Source: Eledone cirrhosa
Lineage: Eukaryota
Assembly (NCBI GenBank): GCA_964016885.1
Contig: OZ024755.1
Location: 37,200,001-37,264,000 of the forward strand
Direction: 5' to 3'
DNA length: 64,000 bases
Below the pieces are notes generated by a model. That model ran no database searches. It saw only the letters and a list, made by a program, of their open reading frames with translations, and was not told where the DNA came from. Below, piece after piece: positions 14,614 to 32,030 of this stretch. The position numbers were made by a program, and so were the translations under genes. The first letter of the stretch is position 1. The number at the start of each line of letters is the position of its first letter.

Positions 14614-14652
14614 TGAACAAGTACTTTCATGCTTTCGCAATCTTCAGGTTCA
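14614..14652 (-). ncRNA. Minimal type I hammerhead ribozyme downstream of the GIY-YIG ORF (PLE pseudo-LTR)
   Basis: Minus strand tgaac-CTGAAGA-t tgc gaaa gca t-GAA AGTACT T-gttca. Perfect 5-bp stem I, palindromic stem III. Confidence 0.8.
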
Positions 14653-15029: not shown

Positions 15030-15509
15030 TTATTGTTGATTTAGCTTGGGTTTGAATTTATCAATAAAATTCTTTTCTTTGATTTTTCTCTTGATTTCAC
15101 TTGGGCTGTGTAATTTGTAGAATGGGAATATTATAAATATTCCCTGACCACATGTTGCCAGGTGGCCGCTTAGGGGTATCTGACGGACATTTGGGTCTCT
15201 GATTTGTTGACGGTGTACCCGTGCACGCTCCGATAGTGCATTTCCAGTTTGACCGACATATAGTTCTTCACAATTCGGGCATTTAATGCAGTAAATTAGA
15301 TTTCTGCTTTTGCAGTTCATATTTGCATTTGGGAATATTTTTCCAGTTGTTGTTTTCATATATTGACCGGCGTGTATGGATTGACATGTGCCGCATCGAT
15401 TATCATTGCATTTAGATACAGTGAATGATTGGTCTTTGTTGTTAAGGTCAAACTTTGCTTTTGTTAGCAATTGCTTCAAATTTTTTGGCTGTCTTTTACT
15501 AAGAGTCAA
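15030..15509 (-). pseudogene. 5'-truncated Penelope-like element (Neptune-like): Cys linker plus GIY-YIG endonuclease
   Basis: KRQPKNLKQLL..KCNDNRCGTC..CKSRNLIYCIKCPNCEELYVGQTGNALSER..VH..LSGHLATC..KEKNFIDKFKPKLN. Confidence 0.88.
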
Positions 15510-15578
15510 AGATCGATCTGTGATTAAGCCTTATATATACATATATATATATATATACATATATACACACACACACAC

Positions 15579-15626: not shown

Positions 15627-18720
<3,094 letters not shown>

Positions 18721-21700
18721 TATATTATTGTTCTGCACCCTCCTGCATTGAACCACCTAGGTACTATGACATAACCTGTGTATTTGCTGGCATGGACGTG
18801 CATCTGTGCGCCTATGTTAGTTGATATATTAAATTATCTATATTTATCTCCAAATCACTGATTTGTCGAGCAAACCTGCCAAAACCACTTCAAAATTTTT
18901 TTTGGGGTGTTAGTAGGCGTCAGTCATCTTACCATCCCATTCCTTTTAACTAGCCTCTATGTCACGTGATTGATTCTTTAGAATCGGACATTTGACTGGA
19001 AGCAGTGAGAATTTCAGTACATAGAATCCAGTCCTCGCCTAGCTGTTCTTTCTACCGAATTATTATTTTTATATGAGCCGCTAGTGTCCGCGCATTGCCT
19101 GGAGGCTCAGCTGAGAATAGACTCCCTGATGACGCAATGAATTCTCGACAGTTGGATTATGTAACTGTCTTTATCCCATTGCAGAAACTAATTAGTTGGA
19201 GTGAAAATTTAAGTAAGTAAGTAAAAAATTTTTAAAAAATTTTTTAAAAAATGTTTTCTTATTTTACGTCTTTTATATTATTGTTCTGCACCCTCCTGCA
19301 TTGAACCACCTAGGTACTATGACATAACCTGTGTATTTGCTGGCATGGACGTGCATCTGTGCGCCTATGTTAGTTGATATATTAAATTATCTATATTTAT
19401 CTCCAAATCACTGATTTGTCGAGCAAACCTGCCAAAACCACTTCAAAATTTTTTTTGGGGTGTTAGTAGGCGTCAGTCATCTTACCATCCCATTCCTTCT
19501 AACTAGCCTCTATGTCACGTGATTGATTCTTTAGAATCGGACATTTGACTGGAAGCAGTGAGAATTTCAGTACATAGAATCCAGTCCTCGCCTAGCTGTT
19601 CTTTCTACCGAATTATTATTTTTATATGAGCCGCTAGTGTCCGCGCATTGCCTGGAGGATCAGCTGAGAATAGACTCCCTGATGACGCAATGAATTCTCG
19701 ACAGTTGGATTATGTAACTGTCTTTATCCCATTGCAGAAACTAATTAGTTGGAGTGAAAATTTAAGTAAGTAAGTAAAAAATTTTTTTAAAATTTTTTAA
19801 AAAATGTTTTCTTATTTTACGTCTTTTATATTATTGTTCTGCACCCTCCTGCATTGAACCACCTAGGTACTATGACATAACCTGTGTATTTGCTGGCATG
19901 GACGTGCATCTGTGCGCCTATGTTAGTTGATATATTAAATTATCTATATTTATCTCCAAATCACTGATTTGTCGAGCAAACCTGCCAAAACCACTTCAAA
20001 ATTTTTTTTGGGGTGTTAGTAGGCGTCAGTCATCTTACCATCCCATTCCTTCTAACTAGCCTCTATGTCACGTGATTGATTCTTTAGAATCGGACATTTG
20101 ACTGGAAGCAGTGAGAATTTCAGTACATAGAATCCAGTCCTCGCCTAGCTGTTCTTTCTACCGAATTATTATTTTTATATGAGCCGCTAGTGTCCGCGCA
20201 TTGCCTGGAGGATCAGCTGAGAATAGACTCCCTGATGACGCAATGAATTCTCGACAGTTGGATTATGTAACTGTCTTTATCCCATTGCAGAAACTAATTA
20301 GTTGGAGTGAAAATTTAAGTAAGTAAGTAAAAAATTTTTTTAAAATTTTTTAAAAAATGTTTTCTTATTTTACGTCTTTTATATTATTGTTCTGCACCCT
20401 CCTGCATTGAACCACCTAGGTACTATGACATAACCTGTGTATTTGCTGGCATGGACGTGCATCTGTGCGCCTATGTTAGTTGATATATTAAATTATCTAT
20501 ATTTATCTCTAAATCACTGATTTGTCGAGCAAACCTGCCAAAACCACTTCAAAATTTTTTTTGGGGTGTTAGTAGGCGTCAGTCATCTTACCATCCCATT
20601 CCTTCTAACTAGCCTCTATGTCACGTGATTGGTTCTTTAGAATCGGACATTTGACTCGAAGCAGTGAGAATTTCAGTACATAGAATCCAGTCCTCGCCTA
20701 GCTGTTCTTTCTACCGAATTATTATTTTTATATGAGCCGCTAGTGTCCGCGCATTGCCTGGAGGCTCAGCTGAGAATAGACTCCCTGATGACGCAATGAA
20801 TTCTCGACAGTTGGATTATGTAACTGTCTTTATCCCATTGCAGAAACTAATTAGTTGGAGTGAAAATTTAAGTAAGTAAGTAAAAAAAAAAAAAAAAAAA
20901 AAAATTTTTTTTAAATTTTTTAAAAAATGTTTTCTTATTTTACGTCTTTTATATTATTGTTCTGCACCCTCCTGCATTGAACCACCTAGGTACTATGACA
21001 TAACCTGTGTATTTGCTGGCATGGACGTGCATCTGTGCGCCTATGTTAGTTGATATATTAAATTATCTATATTTATCTCCAAATCACTGATTTGTCGAGC
21101 AAACCTGCCAAAACCACTTCAAAATTTTTTTTGGGGTGTTAGTAGGCGTCAGTCATCTTACCATCCCATTCCTTCTAACTAGCCTCTATGTCACGTGATT
21201 GATTCTTTAGAATCGGACATTTGACTGGAAGCAGTGAGAATTTCAGTACATAGAATCCAGTCCTCGCCTAGCTGTTCTTTCTACCGAATTATTATTTTTA
21301 TATGAGCCGCTAGTGTCCGCGCATTGCCTGGAGGATCAGCTGAGAATAGACTCCCTGATGACGCAATGAATTCTCGACAGTTGGATTATGTAACTGTCTT
21401 TATCCCATTGCAGAAACTAATTAGTTGGAGTGAAAATTTAAGTAAGTAAGTAAAAAATTTTTTTAAAATTTTTTAAAAAATGTTTTCTTATTTTACGTCT
21501 TTTATATTATTGTTCTGCACCCTCCTGCATTGAACCACCTAGGTACTATGACATAACCTGTGTATTTGCTGGCATGGACGTGCATCTGTGCGCCTATGTT
21601 AGTTGATATATTAAATTATCTATATTTATCTCCAAATCACTGATTTGTCGAGCAAACCTGCCAAAACCACTTCAAAATTTTTTTTGGGGTGTTAGTAGGC

Positions 21701-24700
21701 GTCAGTCATCTTACCATCCCATTCCTTCTAACTAGCCTCTATGTCACGTGATTGATTCTTTAGAATCGGACATTTGACTGGAAGCAGTGAGAATTTCAGT
21801 ACATAGAATCCAGTCCTCGCCTAGCTGTTCTTTCTACCGAATTATTATTCTTATATGAGCCGCTAGTGTCCGCGCATTGCCTGGAGGCTCAGCTGAGAAT
21901 AGACTCCCTGATGACGCAATGAATTCTCGACAGTTGGATTATGTAACTGTCTTTATCCCATTGCAGAAACTAATTAGTTGGAGTGAAAATTTAAGTAAGT
22001 AAAAAAATTTTAAAAATTTTTTAAAAAATGTTTTCTTATTTTACGTCTTTTATATTATTGTTCTGCACCCTCCTGCATTGAACCACCTAGGTACTATGAC
22101 ATAACCTGTGTATTTGCTGGCATGGACGTGCATCTGTGCGCCTATGTTAGTTGATATATTAAATTATCTATATTTATCTCCAAATCACTGATTTGTCGAG
22201 CAAACCTGCCAAAACCACTTCAAAATTTTTTTGGGGGTGTTAGTAGGCGTCAGTCATCTTACCATCCCATTCCTTCTAACTAGCCTCTATGTCACGTGAT
22301 TGATTCTTTAGAATCGGACATTTGACTGGAAGCAGTGAGAATTTCAGTACATAGAATCCAGTCCTCGCCTAGCTGTTCTTTCTACCGAATTATTATTTTT
22401 ATATGAGCCGCTAGTGTCCGCGCATTGCCTGGAGGATCAGCTGAGAATAGACTCCCTGATGACGCAATGAATTCTCGACAGTTGGATTATGTAACTGTCT
22501 TTATCCCATTGCAGAAACTAATTAGTTGGAGTGAAAATTTAAGTAAGTAAGTAAAAAATTTTTTTAAAATTTTTTAAAAAATGTTTTCTTATTTTACGTC
22601 TTTTATATTATTGTTCTGCACCCTCCTGCATTGAACCACCTAGGTACTATGACATAACCTGTGTATTTGCTGGCATGGACGTGCATCTGTGCGCCTATGT
22701 TAGTTGATATATTAAATTATCTATATTTATCTCCAAATCACTGATTTGTCGAGCAAACCTGCCAAAACCACTTCAAAATTTTTTTTGGGGTGTTAGTAGG
22801 CGTCAGTCATCTTACCATCCCATTCCTTCTAACTAGCCTCTATGTCACGTGATTGATTCTTTAGAATCGGACATTTGACTGGAAGCAGTGAGAATTTCAG
22901 TACATAGAATCCAGTCCTCGCCTAGCTGTTCTTTCTACCGAATTATTATTTTTATATGAGCCGCTAGTGTCCGCGCATTGCCTGGAGGATCAGCTGAGAA
23001 TAGACTCCCTGATGACGCAATGAATTCTCGACAGTTGGATTATGTAACTGTCTTTATCCCATTGCAGAAACTAATTAGTTGGAGTGAAAATTTAAGTAAG
23101 TAAGTAAAAAATTTTTTTAAAATTTTTTAAAAAATGTTTTCTTATTTTACGTCTTTTATATTATTGTTCTGCACCCTCCTGCATTGAACCACCTAGGTAC
23201 TATGACATAACCTGTGTATTTGCTGGCATGGACGTGCATCTGTGCGCCTATGTTAGTTGATATATTAAATTATCTATATTTATCTCCAAATCACTGATTT
23301 GTCGAGCAAACCTGCCAAAACCACTTCAAAATTTTTTTTGGGGTGTTAGTAGGCGTCAGTCATCTTACCATCCCATTCCTTCTAACTAGCCTCTATGTCA
23401 CGTGATTGATTCTTTAGAATCGGACATTTGACTGGAAGCAGTGAGAATTTCAGTACATAGAATCCAGTCCTCGCCTAGCTGTTCTTTCTACCGAATTATT
23501 ATTTTTATATGAGCCGCTAGTGTCCGCGCATTGCCTGGAGGCTCAGCTGAGAATAGACTCCCTGATGACGCAATGAATTCTCGACAGTTGGATTATGTAA
23601 CTGTCTTTATCCCATTGCAGAAACTAATTAGTTGGAGTGAAAATTTAAGTAAGTAAAACAATTTTAAAAATTTTTTAAAAAATGTTTTCTTATTTTACGT
23701 CTTTTATATTATTGTTCTGCACCCTCCTGCATTGAACCACCTAGGTACTATGACATAACCTGTGTATTTGCTGGCATGGACGTGCATCTGTGCGCCTATG
23801 TTAGTTGATATATTAAATTATCTATATTTATCTCCAAATCACTGATTTGTCGAGCAAACCTGCCAAAACCACTTCAAAATTTTTTTGGGGGTGTTAGTAG
23901 GCGTCAGTCATCTTACCATCCCATTCCTTCTAACTAGCCTCTATGTCACGTGATTGATTCTTTAGAATCGGACATTTGACTGGAAGCAGTGAGAATTTCA
24001 GTACATAGAATCCAGTCCTCGCCTAGCTGTTCTTTCTACCGAATTATTATTTTTATATGAGCCGCTAGTGTCCGCGCATTGCCTGGAGGATCAGCTGAGA
24101 ATAGACTCCCTGATGACGCAATGAATTCTCGACAGTTGGATTATGTAACTGTCTTTATCCCATTGCAGAAACTAATTAGTTGGAGTGAAAATTTAAGTAA
24201 GTAAGTAAAAAATTTTTTTAAAATTTTTTAAAAAATGTTTTCTTATTTTACGTCTTTTATATTATTGTTCTGCACCCTCCTGCATTGAACCACCTAGGTA
24301 CTATGACATAACCTGTGTATTTGCTGGCATGGACGTGCATCTGTGCGCCTATGTTAGTTGATATATTAAATTATCTATATTTATCTCCAAATCACTGATT
24401 TGTCGAGCAAACCTGCCAAAACCACTTCAAAATTTTTTTTGGGGTGTTAGTAGGCGTCAGTCATCTTACCATCCCATTCCTTCTAACTAGCCTCTATGTC
24501 ACGTGATTGATTCTTTAGAATCGGACATTTGACTGGAAGCAGTGAGAATTTCAGTACATAGAATCCAGTCCTCGCCTAGCTGTTCTTTCTACCGAATTAT
24601 TATTTTTATATGAGCCGCTAGTGTCCGCGCATTGCCTGGAGGATCAGCTGAGAATAGACTCCCTGATGACGCAATGAATTCTCGACAGTTGGATTATGTA

Positions 24701-26050
24701 ACTGTCTTTATCCCATTGCAGAAACTAATTAGTTGGAGTGAAAATTTAAGTAAGTAAGTAAAAAATTTTTTTAAAATTTTTTAAAAAATGTTTTCTTATT
24801 TTACGTCTTTTATATTATTGTTCTGCACCCTCCTGCATTGAACCACCTAGGTACTATGACATAACCTGTGTATTTGCTGGCATGGACGTGCATCTGTGCG
24901 CCTATGTTAGTTGATATATTAAATTATCTATATTTATCTCCAAATCACTGATTTGTCGAGCAAACCTGCCAAAACCACTTCAACATTTTTTTTGGGGTGT
25001 TAGTAGGCGTCAGTCATCTTACCATCCCATTCCTTCTAACTAGCCTCTATGTCACGTGATTGATTCTTTAGAATCGGACATTTGACTGGAAGCAGTGAGA
25101 ATTTCAGTACATAGAATCCAGTCCTCGCCTAGCTGTTCTTTCTACCGAATTATTATTTTTATATGAGCCGCTAGTGTCCGCGCATTGCCTGGAGGCTCAG
25201 CTGAGAATAGACTCCCTGATGACGCAATGAATTCTCGACAGTTGGATTATGTAACTGTCTTTATCCCATTGCAGAAACTAATTAGTTGGAGTGAAAATTT
25301 AAGTAAGTAAGTAAAAAAAAAAAAAAAAAAAATTTTTTTTAAATTTTTTAAAAAATGTTTTCTTATTTTACGTCTTTTATATTATTGTTCTGCACCCTCC
25401 TGCATTGAACCACCTAGGTACTATGACATAACCTGTGTATTTGCTGGCATGGACGTGCATCTGTGCGCCTATGTTAGTTGATATATTAAATTATCTATAT
25501 TTATCTCCAAATCACTGATTTGTCGAGCAAACCTGCCAAAACCACTTCAAAATTTTTTTTGGGGTGTTAGTAGGCGTCAGTCATCTTACCATCCCATTCC
25601 TTCTAACTAGCCTCTATGTCACGTGATTGATTCTTTAGAATCGGACATTTGACTGGAAGCAGTGAGAATTTCAGTACATAGAATCCAGTCCTCGCCTAGC
25701 TGTTCTTTCTACCGAATTATTATTTTTATATGAGCCGCTAGTGTCCGCGCATTGCCTGGAGGCTCAGCTGAGAATAGACTCCCTGATGACGCAATGAATT
25801 CTCGACAGTTGGATTATGTAACTGTCTTTATCCCATTGCAGAAACTAATTAGTTGGAGTGAAAATTTAAGTAAGTAAGTAAAAAATTTTTTTAAAATTTT
25901 TTAAAAAATGTTTTCTTATTTTACGTCTTTTATATTATTGTTCTGCATCCTCCTGCATTGAACCACCTAGGTACTATGACATAACCTGTGTATTTGCTGG
26001 CATGGACGTGCATCTGTGCGCCTATGTTAGTTGATATATTAAATTATCTA

Positions 26051-26130: not shown

Positions 26131-28015
26131 GACAAGCGACGACCCGACAACAGGACCACCAACAAGACCCGTATGCGGAGCTAATATAGCTAGCAACTAC
26201 AGGATCTCCTACTTCCTCTCAATGGTTATACGCCCCATAATCAAGATGTCCCCAGATGTATGTGACAGTACAGAGGACCTCCTCAGCTGAATCAGTGAGT
26301 GCAACAAAAACAGGAGCCTATCCAACTGCATAATAGGCAGCATGGATGTGGTGTCACTGTACCCATCCATTAACATTGATTTTGCTGTGAAAAGATGTGT
26401 GGAGATGATCATTGAGAGTGAGGTGGAGTTCTGCGACGTCGACACAGACGAACTGGGCCTCCTACTTAGACTTACCTACGACACTGACTACCTAGACAGC
26501 CATGACCTTAGATGTTTCTGCCCTAGTAGACCTATAAGAGGTAGACCCCCCACCATAACCTCAATGGCAAAAAAGACTCCCATGGGAAGGTGGACTGGGT
26601 GGACCAAAGCTATACGGACCCCCCAAAACAATGATCAGGTAAGAAAAATGGTCGCACATGCAATAGGGGCTAGTATCAAAACTACCCTAAAGGGCCACAT
26701 ATTTAAGTTCAATGAAAAAATCTACACCCAAAATGAGGGAGCAGCCATCGGCGTCAGCATAGCTGGTGATGTTGCCAACCTTTTCATGGTATGGTGGGAA
26801 AGGAGACTTAAAGATCTCCTTAATGAAAGCTCCATAGACCTCATCATGTACTCTCGTTATGTAGACGATATCAATATAGTTATAAGAACACCCCCACTAG
26901 AGAGCACTAACAAATTTGATTTAGAACGTAGCACGATGGAAAGCATCCAGCAGATAGCTAATTCCATACACCAGAGTATAACTGTAACTATCGACTTCCC
27001 TTCCAAAGACCTTAACAATAGACTACCTGTATTAGACACAGAACTCTGGATTAACACTATAGACGAGAGAGCCCAAATTCTCCACTCACACTATGCTAAA
27101 CCCATGGCCTCCAAATACCTGATACTCAAAAACTCAGCAATGTCCAGTAGTGCGAAGTTTAATATTCTGATCGCAGATTTGGTACGAGTGATGAAGAATG
27201 TGTCCAGCATGTGCGACCCAACAAAAATGGAAAGACACATCCAACACTTCATCAACCGCATGCAGTTCTCTGGCTACAACCAAAGAGACAGAGTCAGAGT
27301 ACACGAAGGAGCCATGGAAAAGTATAAGACCCTCATAGAACTGGACATGAAAGGAATTTGCCCATTATACAGGAGCAAATGATGGAATAGCTTAGGTAGG
27401 GCTAGACATAAGATAGGGAAAGCCACATCATGGTACGACAACCAGAGATACCAGAGTGTCATGTTTGTGGACGCCACCCCTGGAGAGAAATTAGCTAACC
27501 AGTGTAGAAAGGCCCTGAGAAGGACCCACTTAAAAATAAAGGTGGTAGAAAAGCCAGGAACCACCATAAAATCCCTGATCAGCAAAATCTACCCTTTTAA
27601 GAAAACCCACTGTACCAATAGGAAATGTATCATATGTAAGGTGAACCCCCGGATAAACTGTAAAACTAGAAACGTAGTCTATAGCATAAGATGCACAGAG
27701 GGTACTTGCAGAAACATGACAACAACATACATAGGTGAGACAGCTCGTAGTATAGGTGAAAGGATAGACCAACACTGGGGGGAACTAAAAGGACGAAAAA
27801 ACGGGTCAGTACTATACGAACATGCTAGACAACAACATGACGGTAACATAGACAACATAGAAATTAGAATAATATCTAAACATAGAAATGAACCAGCAGA
27901 TGGGCAAATCAGAGAGGCCAGTGAAATAGAAATTAGAAGACCAAAGCTAAACAGAAAGAATGAGTGGAATAACAACAACACCCAAACAAACAACACTGAC
28001 CTAAGAGAAGTATAA
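26131..28015 (+). pseudogene. Penelope-like retroelement (Naiad-like) RT plus GIY-YIG, 5'-truncated, one frame with two internal TGA
   Basis: GPPTRPVCGA, GSMDVVSLYPSI, GAAIG, SRYVDD, LPVLD, PLYR, MFVDATPG, CTNRKCIIC, NVVYSIRC..YIGETARS..ER..H. ORFs 26342 and 27461 are in the same frame. Confidence 0.9.
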
Positions 28016-28232
28016 ATAAGTAAATAAAATAAGATAAATAAATACATACACAAGCACAATAACAACAAGCACATAAACACACACTAGTCACCCAGCAAAC
28101 ATAACACTATACACACTAGTCACACAGCAAACATAACACTATACACACACGCAAACGCATGCGCAAAGAAGACAAAATAAAATAAACAAACAAGCAAATA
28201 AATAAATAAATATATAGACAGACTGAATAAAA

Positions 28233-28524
28233 AATGGCGTAGACATACAACACAACAGGAGGAAAATATAACACCACTGACGATGTTGCAGATGTGCAAC
28301 GAAAGATTTATGTAAATTATGTAAACTATATATATGTGTTTGTATCTATATTCTATCTGTATTATTTTTGACCGTCGGTCAGTCAATGGCAACATTGAGG
28401 ACCGAGTAAGTTAGATTGCAGATATAAAAGACAGCGAGAAGCGAAAACCAACCAAACAGTGAGTGTGTTCTGTTATTAATTCTGGCAATATTACACAAAT
28501 ATGACCCTCCCCAAGTATAACAAC

Positions 28525-28525
<1 letters not shown>
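28233..28525 (+). mobile_element. Putative 3' pseudo-LTR of the Naiad-like PLE with HHR-like core (CTGACGA 28277-28283, GAAA 28301-28304)
   Basis: Lies directly downstream of the ORF and is repeated at 5355, 31401 (-) and 31693. Stems I and III imperfect. Confidence 0.65.
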
Positions 28526-28623
<98 letters not shown>

Positions 28624-28858
28624 ATATTTAGAAACACACAGATACATGCGGACACACACATATACATGAATGCATCCGCACCCAACCGTGAGTTAAGGGT
28701 GCCAACTTCACCGATGTTGCTCAATGAATGACTGGGACAGACCAATCCGGTTGAACTAGACTGAACCAGTATCAGAGTTAAAAATACATTATGAAGAGAG
28801 AAGAAACATTTAGGTATAATTAGTAATAAAATGTATCATACCTAAACTGCTCCTAGAT

Positions 28859-28948
28859 TCCTCGACTACGTAGTTTCGTGGCATAAACAAAAACAATACA
28901 TCATAAAGATATAGAGTCCTTGCGAGGTCTGCCGACTTATCAAGAGGA
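28859..28948 (-). ncRNA. Type I hammerhead ribozyme, U3-A8 core variant
   Basis: Reverse complement of 29898-29987. Confidence 0.75.
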
Positions 28949-29451
28949 TACCTCATTTTACTAGTCTCAAGAACGCGTCTACACGACGTGAGAAAGAATC
29001 CCAAAAGGCGGAGGGGGAGATAGTCACGCGATATAACGGTCGAGAAACAGAGCTAAGCCTCTTATAACCCCGAAGAAAATACCACGGAGGCGGAGGGGGT
29101 ATTTATATCGAAGCCGTAGAAGAGGTAGTGAAGGAGGCGAGAAGTATGAGTAATGGAAGCTTTCCAGCAGTCCCCACACTTCAAAGATTGCTCGACCAGA
29201 GGGAGTTATTAACAATATATTTAGAAACACACAGATACATGCGGACACACACATATACATGAATGCATCCGCACCCAACCGTGAGTTAAGGGTGCCAACT
29301 TCACCGATGTTGCTCAATGAATGACTGGGACAGACCAATCCGGTTGAACTAGACTGAACCAGTATCAGAGTTAAAAATACATTATGAAGAGAGAAGAAAC
29401 ATTTAGGTATAATTAGTAATAAAATGTATCATACCTAAACTGCTCCTAGAT

Positions 29452-29541
29452 TCCTCGACTACGTAGTTTCGTGGCATAAACAAAAACAATACATCATAAA
29501 GATATAGAGTCCTTGCGAGGTCTGCCGACTTATCAAGAGGA
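29452..29541 (-). ncRNA. Type I hammerhead ribozyme, U3-A8 core variant
   Basis: Reverse complement of 29898-29987. Confidence 0.75.
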
Positions 29542-29897
29542 TACCTCATTTTACTAGTCTCAAGAACGCGTCTACACGACGTGAGAAAGAATCCCAAAAG
29601 GCGGAGGGGGAGATAGTCACGCGATATAACGGTCGAGAAACAGAGCTAAGCCTCTTATAACCCCGAAGAAAATACCACGGAGGCGGAGGGGGTATTTATA
29701 TCGAAGCCGTAGAAGAGGTAGTGAAGGAGGCGAGAAGTATGAGTAATAGAAGCTTTCCAGCAGTCCCCACACTTCAAAGATTGCTCGACCAGAGGGAGTT
29801 TCTCGACCGTTATATCGCGTGACTATCTCCCCCTCCGCCTTTTGGGATTCTTTCTCACGTCGTGTAGACGCGTTCTTGAGACTAGTAAAATGAGGTA

Positions 29898-29987
29898 TCC
29901 TCTTGATAAGTCGGCAGACCTCGCAAGGACTCTATATCTTTATGATGTATTGTTTTTGTTTATGCCACGAAACTACGTAGTCGAGGA
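29898..29987 (+). ncRNA. Type I hammerhead ribozyme, U3-A8 core variant
   Basis: TCCTC-TTGATAA-GTcGGCA...TGCCAC-GAA ACTACGTAGT C-GAGGA. Stem I tcctc/gagga, palindromic stem III, GUC site at 29980-29982. Confidence 0.78.
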
Positions 29988-30412
29988 ATCTAGGAGCAGT
30001 TTAGGTATGATACATTTTATTACTAATTATACCTAAATGTTTCTTCTCTCTTCATAATGTATATATATATACATATATATGTATATATACATATATATGT
30101 ATATATACATATATATACATATATATACATATATATGTATATATACATATATATATATACATATATATATATAAGAATATGAGAAATATGGGGAGAAGAA
30201 TACTGCATGGTTGCACATGGATTACATGTTATAAAATGAGTCCCTCATCAGTGATATATATACATATATATATACATATATTTATATACATATATTTATA
30301 TACATATATATATATATAAACATATATATATATATACATATATATATACATATATATATATACATATATTTATATATACATATATTTATATATACATATA
30401 TTTATATACATT

Positions 30413-30492
<80 letters not shown>

Positions 30493-30988
30493 TATATACA
30501 CACATATATATATACATATATTTATTATCTTCGTTTTTTCGTTCATTGCCAGAGAACGTCTTTATGCACCACCTAAGAGAACATTAATCTACGACCTCTT
30601 TTATACCATAAACGTGGTTTTGTCTTTGCGCGTAATTGTTTTTCACTACTCCTATTAATGACGTATTATTCGTTTTTTCCCGTTCTTTGCCAGCGAACGT
30701 TACCACGAACCAAAGTATCGTCTTCCTGTCTTCCTCCGGTTGCAACGGTTTTTGAAATATCCAGTTCTGCGTTTACAGTTTGACTTTGTTAGTTTCAGAA
30801 GATCCCGTTAAGGGTGAAAGCAGCGATTCTTTGCTTAAACTTTAATCTGTTATTTTAATAAATATTTGCTCTACGGTTCTTATATATTTGATATATATTT
30901 TCCTTATCGAGCCCTCTTTGGATTTTAGTCTTCAATTTTATTATTATTACTATATATACATATATTTATATACATATATATGTCTACA

Positions 30989-31400: not shown

Positions 31401-32030
31401 TATTGTTATACTTGGGGAGGGTCATATTTTTGTAATAATATTGCCAGAATTAATAACATAACACACTCACTGTTTGGTTGGTTTTCGCTTCTGTGTCTTT
31501 TATATCGGTACTCTAATTTAATTTATTCGATCCTCAATGTTGCCATTGACTGACCAACGGTAAAAAATACAGATACAATATAGACACAAACACATATATA
31601 TATATAGTCTCTCGAAGTTCTTTCGTTGCACATCTGCAACATCGTCAGTGTTGCTATTATGTTTCCTCCTGTTGCATTGTAAGACTAAATAAAGATGGCG
31701 TAAACATACAATGCAACGGGAGGGAACATAATAGCTACACTGACGATGTTGCAGATGTGCAATGAAAGAACTTTGATAGACTATATATATATGTGTTTAT
31801 GTCTATATTGTATCTGTATTTTTGACCGTTGGTTAGTCAATGGCAATATTGAGAACCGAATAAATTAAATTAACCAATATAAAAGACACAGAAGCGAAAA
31901 CCAACCAAACAGTGAGTGTGTTCTGTTATTAATTCTGGCAATATTACACAAATATGACCTCCCCAAGTATAACAATATTTGTTTCGACACACGATTTCAT
32001 ATCAAAAACCTCGCAAAACTAATTCATCGC
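31401..32030. mobile_element. Head-to-head inverted pair of the Naiad-associated pseudo-LTR (31401-31682 minus, 31693-32030 plus)
   Basis: Arms are reverse complements, both with CTGACGA..GAAA core, flanked by long (TA)n. Confidence 0.8.

Follow-up and report, generated by a model that had tools for sequence, protein, structure and literature searches.

The window analysed here, a 64,000-nucleotide stretch of Eledone cirrhosa contig OZ024755.1, contains a whole element at 28619-30062, flanked on both sides by (TA)n. BLASTN and direct comparison resolved it into the following parts, the two target sites being read from the sequence.

28525..28618, no strand: left target site, (TA)n tract
28619..29211, minus (sense) strand: unit 1, 593 bp, its 3′ end adjoining the (TA)n tract
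28619..28783, minus strand: stretch of 165 bp between the 3′ end points 28619 and 28784, analogue of a PLE tail
29212..29800, minus strand: unit 2, 589 bp, head-to-tail with unit 1 and 4 bp below the full unit
29798..30062, plus strand: inverted partial copy, 265 bp, its sense 3′ end adjoining the right (TA)n
30063..30525, no strand: right target site, (TA)n-rich tract

Units 1 and 2 differ by a single base (29155/29748). Read as its reverse complement, 28784-29048 is 100% identical to the inverted copy, which overlaps unit 2 by 3 nt at the inversion joint; on either side, the insertion meets (TA)n with a sense 3′ end. The initial annotation had described a 593-bp unit present twice plus an inverted partial copy. 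This layout stands, except that the second unit measures 589 bp. The right end, previously placed at 30058, is 30062 by comparison, yet 4-5 nt there resemble the (TA)n tract and blur it, and 30058 lies inside this blur. BLASTN detected no further copies of the 593-bp unit elsewhere in the 64-kb window. The ATG ORFs inside the element are of 48 and 78 aa, the remaining listed ORFs traversing (TA)n. No RT or GIY-YIG endonuclease ORF was found within 28619-30062. A tRNA-derived SINE was rejected, as the element has no detectable tRNA gene and neither an A nor a B box.

All three copies read TCCTC-TTGATAA-stem II-GAA-ACTACGTAGT-C-GAGGA, and their hammerheads are placed as follows.

28859..28955, minus strand: hammerhead copy 1, type I; U3 at 28943, A8 at 28938, C17 at 28864
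28948-28944 with 28863-28859, minus strand: stem I of copy 1; core U3 to A9 at 28943-28937, GAA at 28877-28875
28874-28865, minus strand: palindromic stem III of copy 1, adjoining C17 at 28864
29452..29548, minus strand: hammerhead copy 2; U3 at 29536, A8 at 29531, C17 at 29457
29891..29987, plus strand: hammerhead copy 3, in the inverted arm; U3 at 29903, A8 at 29908, C17 at 29982

Apart from the U3-A8 swap, every position agrees with the type I core (C3U4G5A6N7G8A9, G12A13A14, A15.1-U16.1 and H17), and G10.1-C11.1 and the GUC site are present. Three helices surround the core: a 5-bp stem I, a 6-bp stem II in which a single C bulges two pairs away from the junction, and a stem III of 3 bp in the monomer or 10 bp in the dimer, the last being a perfect 10-nt palindrome ahead of the GUC site. 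Loop II is long and holds an imperfect inner rod, so that stem-loop II occupies 59 nt. Earlier statements that U3-A8 preserves the 3-8 pair, and that stems and GUC site are intact, were borne out by the core reading in all three copies and by inspection of their sequence and folds, respectively. A CTGANGA pattern search does overlook this core, as had been proposed, since the copies read TTGATAA.

A hammerhead descriptor leaving positions 3 and 8 free was applied with a loose and a strict cut, together with 100 composition-matched simulated windows. The simulated windows yielded 11 loose matches, 2 of which had a Watson-Crick 3-8 pair, and no strict match. In the real window there were five distinct matches, all with a Watson-Crick 3-8 pair (4 C-G, 1 U-A), and two motifs passed the strict cut, the U3-A8 motif among them. 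The U3-A8 hammerhead is a real observation, beyond chance. Rfam gave no hammerhead match in the window, neither at gathering score nor at E up to 5. A C3-G8 neighbour, the 553-bp element described below, is also missed at gathering score, so the Rfam miss has causes beyond U3-A8 alone; the long loop II is probably one of them. Weak Rfam miRNA matches, far under gathering scores, were dismissed as (TA)n and hairpin noise. Coding constraint was likewise rejected as the cause of U3-A8: a 48-aa ORF crosses the ribozyme, yet C3-G8 would leave this ORF open too. The ORF (28810-28956, minus strand, and its copies) begins just upstream of stem I and traverses the ribozyme. In a Poseidon PLE the ORF likewise begins inside the hammerhead (PMC11167929); the start found here is probably a matter of chance.

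By folding prediction, the monomer hammerhead lies 1.1 kcal/mol above the minimum and represents about 3% of the ensemble. Two linked copies (two 108-nt fragments and an artificial linker, for a native spacing of 593 nt) are predicted to fold, unconstrained, into a double hammerhead at -63.7 kcal/mol. For the same helices, the dimer reaches -58.7 kcal/mol against -46.6 kcal/mol for two monomers, which is 12 kcal/mol better. For the predicted circular monomer the energy is -176.9 kcal/mol, at z = -5.4 relative to 30 shuffles, and the hammerhead is unformed in this fold. A palindromic stem III acting through a dimer is the known pattern of PLE hammerheads (PMC4209133, PMC6765202). The initial annotation mentioned neither this pointer to a dimeric ribozyme nor the fact that tandem and inverted copies are usual for PLE insertions. 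One additional pairing was noticed.

28923..28928 with 28955-28950, minus strand: candidate pseudoknot of 6 bp, one of them G-U, joining the beginning of loop II to the strand upstream of stem I

This candidate was first spotted by eye and has a null P of 0.02-0.03. The 553-bp element, tested after that eye-spotting, has at the same positions a 7-bp pairing with different inner bases (null P 0.008-0.012), for a total of two families only. Perreault et al. 2011 predicted a pseudoknot between stems I and II in about 40% of representatives (PMC3088659). The folds also contain an alternative, an extended stem I of 9 bp with a bulge, which competes for the pseudoknot bases. At 28856, 79% of the depth in the public run X1 is changed, turning one G-C of the extended stem I into G-U. 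We therefore lean towards the candidate pseudoknot.

Part of the unit is contained in 20 of 24 listed public runs, from 16 studies. No RNA run is listed among the 24 as containing the unit, which has no bearing on expression. Four runs, X1, X11, X17 and X20, were examined in detail as contigs, in which rare variants are dropped, letters are unphased, relatives below 80% identity are left out and neither RNA ends nor circles are visible. X1 gave 1,622 records: 670 at 99% identity or above, 488 at 95-99%, 283 at 90-95% and 181 below 90%. Its summed depth, which is not a copy number, is about 8×10^4 to 6×10^5 per full bin. Single listed X1 contigs have a depth of 5-15, so the family must be very abundant, and we infer copies of the order of 10^4. 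X11, X17 and X20 gave 14, 3 and 2 records, mostly near-identical pieces and mostly at depth 2-21. We do not claim horizontal transfer, as trace DNA from a species with a very abundant repeat explains these three runs equally well. Among metagenome contigs, the 23-nt 3′ half of the ribozyme had no match.

In X1, 18 places of the unit differ at a frequency of at least 4%, and none of them falls within 28857-29069, a stretch of 213 bp that includes U3 and A8. The probability of such a variant-free stretch is 0.004 for 18 places, and 0.033 for 13 when clustered places are allowed for; for the 97-nt ribozyme alone it is 0.04-0.09, which is weak. U3-A8 looks fixed in the family, because no other letter reaches 4% at 28943 (U3) or 28938 (A8) among the 1,622 X1 contigs. 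A predominance of CTGATGA or of single changes, named beforehand as the outcome contrary to a functional variant, was therefore not observed. X11 and X17 also span the core, with no difference there. No C3-G8 family member was present at 4% or more in X1, which leaves no contrast for U3/A8 covariation within the family. One low-depth X1 record (record 1, on 28859-28958) matches the ribozyme region only, with 16 differences and 3 gaps, and is a diverged relative.

Does such a core cleave? According to Perreault et al. 2011 (PMC3088659), hammerheads with the U3-A8 covariation show activity in vitro and are found among natural sequences. The swap would retain the 3-8 pair together with the 2′-OH of position 8, which is the general acid in the hammerhead (PMC11300833), so that the base change at A8 need not abolish the general acid. 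We lean towards useful self-cleavage of the U3-A8 hammerhead, with some reservation: minimal metazoan PLE hammerheads cleave poorly (PMC4209133), and of nine predicted retrozyme dimers one cleaved in vitro and eight failed to (Li et al. 2026, 10.64898/2026.07.22.740005). These eight failures are also what one would cite for a different reading of the same mobile element, in which the hammerhead is a passenger. U3-A8 would then come from a founder copy and have been fixed by amplification, cleavage would be weak or nil, and PLE proteins would copy uncleaved RNA. In a purified PLE system, hammerhead mutants were without effect on insertion in vitro and no RNA ends were seen at the cut site (PMC11167929). 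Moreover the family looks young, given the 670 X1 records at the highest identity, and for a young family uniformity is expected from descent alone. We nevertheless consider this reading unlikely. Both changes preserve the 3-8 pair, the other core bases, the stems, the palindrome and the candidate pseudoknot are all intact, and the 213-bp variant-free stretch exceeds expectation at either P value. The identical double change is also found in an unrelated host, S. mansoni (PMC4209133).

The three copies share one further base.

28814, 29407 and 30032, plus strand at 28814: G common to all three copies, absent from the X1 depth there

At 28814 the X1 depth is all A (other letter 488176.8 of 488176.8), against G in the window. 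This rare base being common to the three copies, they amount to one observation of U3-A8; the initial annotation was right to be cautious about three identical copies, which come from one source. Copying from one circular or concatemeric RNA fits the shared base, and a tandem source locus already bearing it fits too. Near-identical copies with a rare base in common could also arise by local satellite-type duplication or as an assembly artefact, with no RNA intermediate, and unequal crossover is an accepted growth route for such tandems (10.64898/2026.07.22.740005). We regard this as highly improbable. The joints recur in independent run contigs: the head-to-tail joint of the unit is present in X1, X11 and X17 (3 of the 4 runs examined), and among the loose ends listed for X1 the (TA)n joint occurs at 28784 (7 records) and 28785 (2 records). 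Units 1 and 2 have one real difference, and crossover yields no inverted arm ending at a recurrent site.

We conclude that the element is probably a non-autonomous PLE derivative, its pLTR-like unit being a non-LTR retrozyme, which inserts into (TA)n and would cleave as a dimer. Like non-LTR retrozymes (PMC7229834; 10.64898/2026.07.22.740005), it consists of two or more successive tandem units, each carrying a type I hammerhead, and has no protein-coding capacity. With 593 bp, the unit fits the span of 51-972 bp given by Li et al. 2026 (10.64898/2026.07.22.740005), whose sampling included no mollusc, and is longer than the RNAs of 170-400 nt described by Cervera and de la Pena in 2020 (PMC7229834). 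What sets it apart from these retrozymes is the inverted arm and the (TA)n target, which are PLE insertion marks. The anatomy of 28619-30062 agrees with published insertions of EN+ PLEs (PMC8557442; PMC11167929), namely a partial tandem, an inverted 5′ copy, two preferred 3′ end points, a tail and an AT-rich or microsatellite target. It differs from them in the tail, of 165 bp against 30-40 bp, and in that 28619-30062 lacks the RT and GIY-YIG ORF that an autonomous EN+ PLE has between its pLTRs.

Alternatively, the unit could be the pLTR of an autonomous PLE and the locus a 5′-truncated remnant, with no independently replicating family. Truncated PLE copies that carry pLTRs in tandem and inverted form are frequent (PMC8557442), and because retrozymes descend from pLTRs the boundary is not sharp (10.64898/2026.07.22.740005). 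This we hold to be improbable, since the unit is repeated head-to-tail without an intervening ORF and, among the loose ends listed for X1, whose contigs are short, the share running on into unlike sequence is 0. For the 593-bp unit, no pLTR homology to an autonomous element was found within the window.

A broken PLE ORF does lie nearby, at 26291-28015, separated from the 593-bp element by another repeat and a (TA)n tract. It comprises a 363-aa RT part, with a weak RVT_1 match under the Pfam cut-off, one in-frame stop and then a 210-aa part. In the latter, which has no Pfam match, a CX4CxxC linker and a GIY-YIG-like motif were recognised by eye; a linker of this type is described for Neptune elements (PMC8557442). 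Of the 59 homologues of the ORF, five carry a species name, in each case Octopus vulgaris; they align at 58-66% identity across 15-42% of the query, apart from one at 43%, and hint weakly at a cephalopod host. The neighbouring PLE clade was rejected as the source of the 593-bp element: neither U3-A8 nor the hammerhead layout of the unit occurred in the 34 PLE loci related to this ORF, 3 of which have short C3-G8 hammerheads after the ORF, a fourth weak match being A3-U8. The three (L001:3237, L007:1683 and L015:3669, on metagenome contigs) are of type I, with a palindromic stem III, downstream of PLE ORFs.

Other repeats of the window were compared as well. The 553-bp element, at about 18395-26047 in (TA)n, is built of 553-bp units with 13 plus-strand C3-G8 hammerheads, together with a single inverted copy at 18542 on the minus strand, and has the same insertion plan as the 593-bp element in mirror image. 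The two share the 5-bp stem I, the 6-bp stem II, the inner hairpin and the 10-nt palindrome, with no BLASTN similarity. Stem II of the 553-bp element has a C-A mismatch at its base, and the site there reads GUU. BLASTN of the 593-bp unit against the other hammerhead repeats tested gave no match (best E 0.36). A third repeat family, found beside (TA)n at 28230-28524 (truncated) and 31410-31975 (an inverted-plus-direct pair), has a hammerhead-like CTGACGA core with a stem II of 6-7 bp. C3-G8 hammerhead-like motifs with a palindromic stem III occur in addition at 14647, 34828, 35947, 42018, 44864 and 47436, all on the minus strand, the one at 14647 being about 380 bp downstream of a GIY-YIG ORF (15030-15530).

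For the non-autonomous PLE derivative we propose the following course. In a transcript through the tandem, the 10-nt palindromes of two hammerheads would pair, and the resulting dimer would cut after C17, at 29457 and 28864, releasing a 593-nt monomer RNA, perhaps circularised; the pseudoknot of loop II with the strand upstream of stem I may provide a tertiary contact. Lacking an ORF for either RT or endonuclease, the element must be supplied with these proteins in trans, and a PLE reverse transcriptase-endonuclease would nick (TA)n. Reverse transcription by PLEs initiates internally, the tail being the product of two internal starts (PMC11167929); here it would begin internally on the RNA at the preferred points 28619 and 28784. 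The first cDNA would span about two unit lengths, a second of 265 nt would be primed from the other target end, and the two would unite head-to-head at the 3-nt overlap.

The U3-A8 variant itself is not new, contrary to what the initial annotation implied. It was published for several natural hammerheads (Perreault et al. 2011, PMC3088659) and for about 1,300 motifs of Cercyon PLEs of S. mansoni (Cervera and de la Pena 2014, PMC4209133). The Cercyon case resembles ours in the U3-A8 covariation, type I fold, PLE context, predicted dimer action and opposite-strand copies nearby (PMC4209133). However, the Cercyon motifs are minimal and heterogeneous, mostly occur singly and have hardly any helix III or none, whereas here the family is uniform, with tandem units, and its hammerhead has a 10-nt palindrome, a candidate pseudoknot and a 59-nt stem-loop II containing the inner rod. 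A retro-element of the 593-bp layout is not described in the available text of PMC3088659, and the pseudoknot is, in our case, predicted only. We found no literature account of the 593-bp family, or of the pseudoknot layout in PLE hammerheads, in a comparison to which supplements and the work of Lunse et al. and of Przybilski and Hammann (PLE dimers; 3-8 exchanges) were external; the main text of PMC13282606 does not contain the word "ribozyme". Variant and layout are thus already known; what appears undescribed is the family, along with its uniform U3-A8 core and the candidate pseudoknot.

The 593-bp element leaves knowledge of the hammerhead core unchanged. It provides a second animal lineage with U3-A8 throughout a PLE-related family, and indicates that CTGANGA descriptors and Rfam can overlook an abundant hammerhead family. 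The role of hammerhead cleavage in PLE spread is left open by PMC8557442 and PMC11167929, and the U3-A8 element with its C3-G8 neighbour forms a pair for asking whether cleavage matters to PLE-driven spread. One may go further, tentatively, and we would not bet on it: the 593-bp units would be a very high-copy retrozyme family, probably of a cephalopod, wholly on U3-A8, of an undescribed dimeric type with a 10-nt palindrome and a pseudoknot from a long loop II to the strand upstream of stem I. The 553-bp family would be its C3-G8 form, and the shared base at 28814 would record reverse transcription in rolling-circle mode, with a single circular RNA as template and priming at either target end. 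If this were true, the two families would be a natural matched pair for asking whether a tertiary contact licenses a weaker core pair.

Two minor observations concern the ends and the arm of the element. The 5′ ends of the tandems (29800 here, about 18735 in the 553-bp element) are at, or at most 4 nt from, one of the element's own 3′ end points, and the 3′ end points may also be preferred nicking or template-switch sites. Finally, each unit has on its antisense strand two GGCGGAGGGGG boxes followed by a TATA-like sequence (29008-29036 and 29089-29110, again in unit 2). In the inverted arm, one such GGCGGAGGGGG/TATA-like pair faces the start of unit 2 in the sense direction and, speculatively, could allow the arm to supply a promoter.
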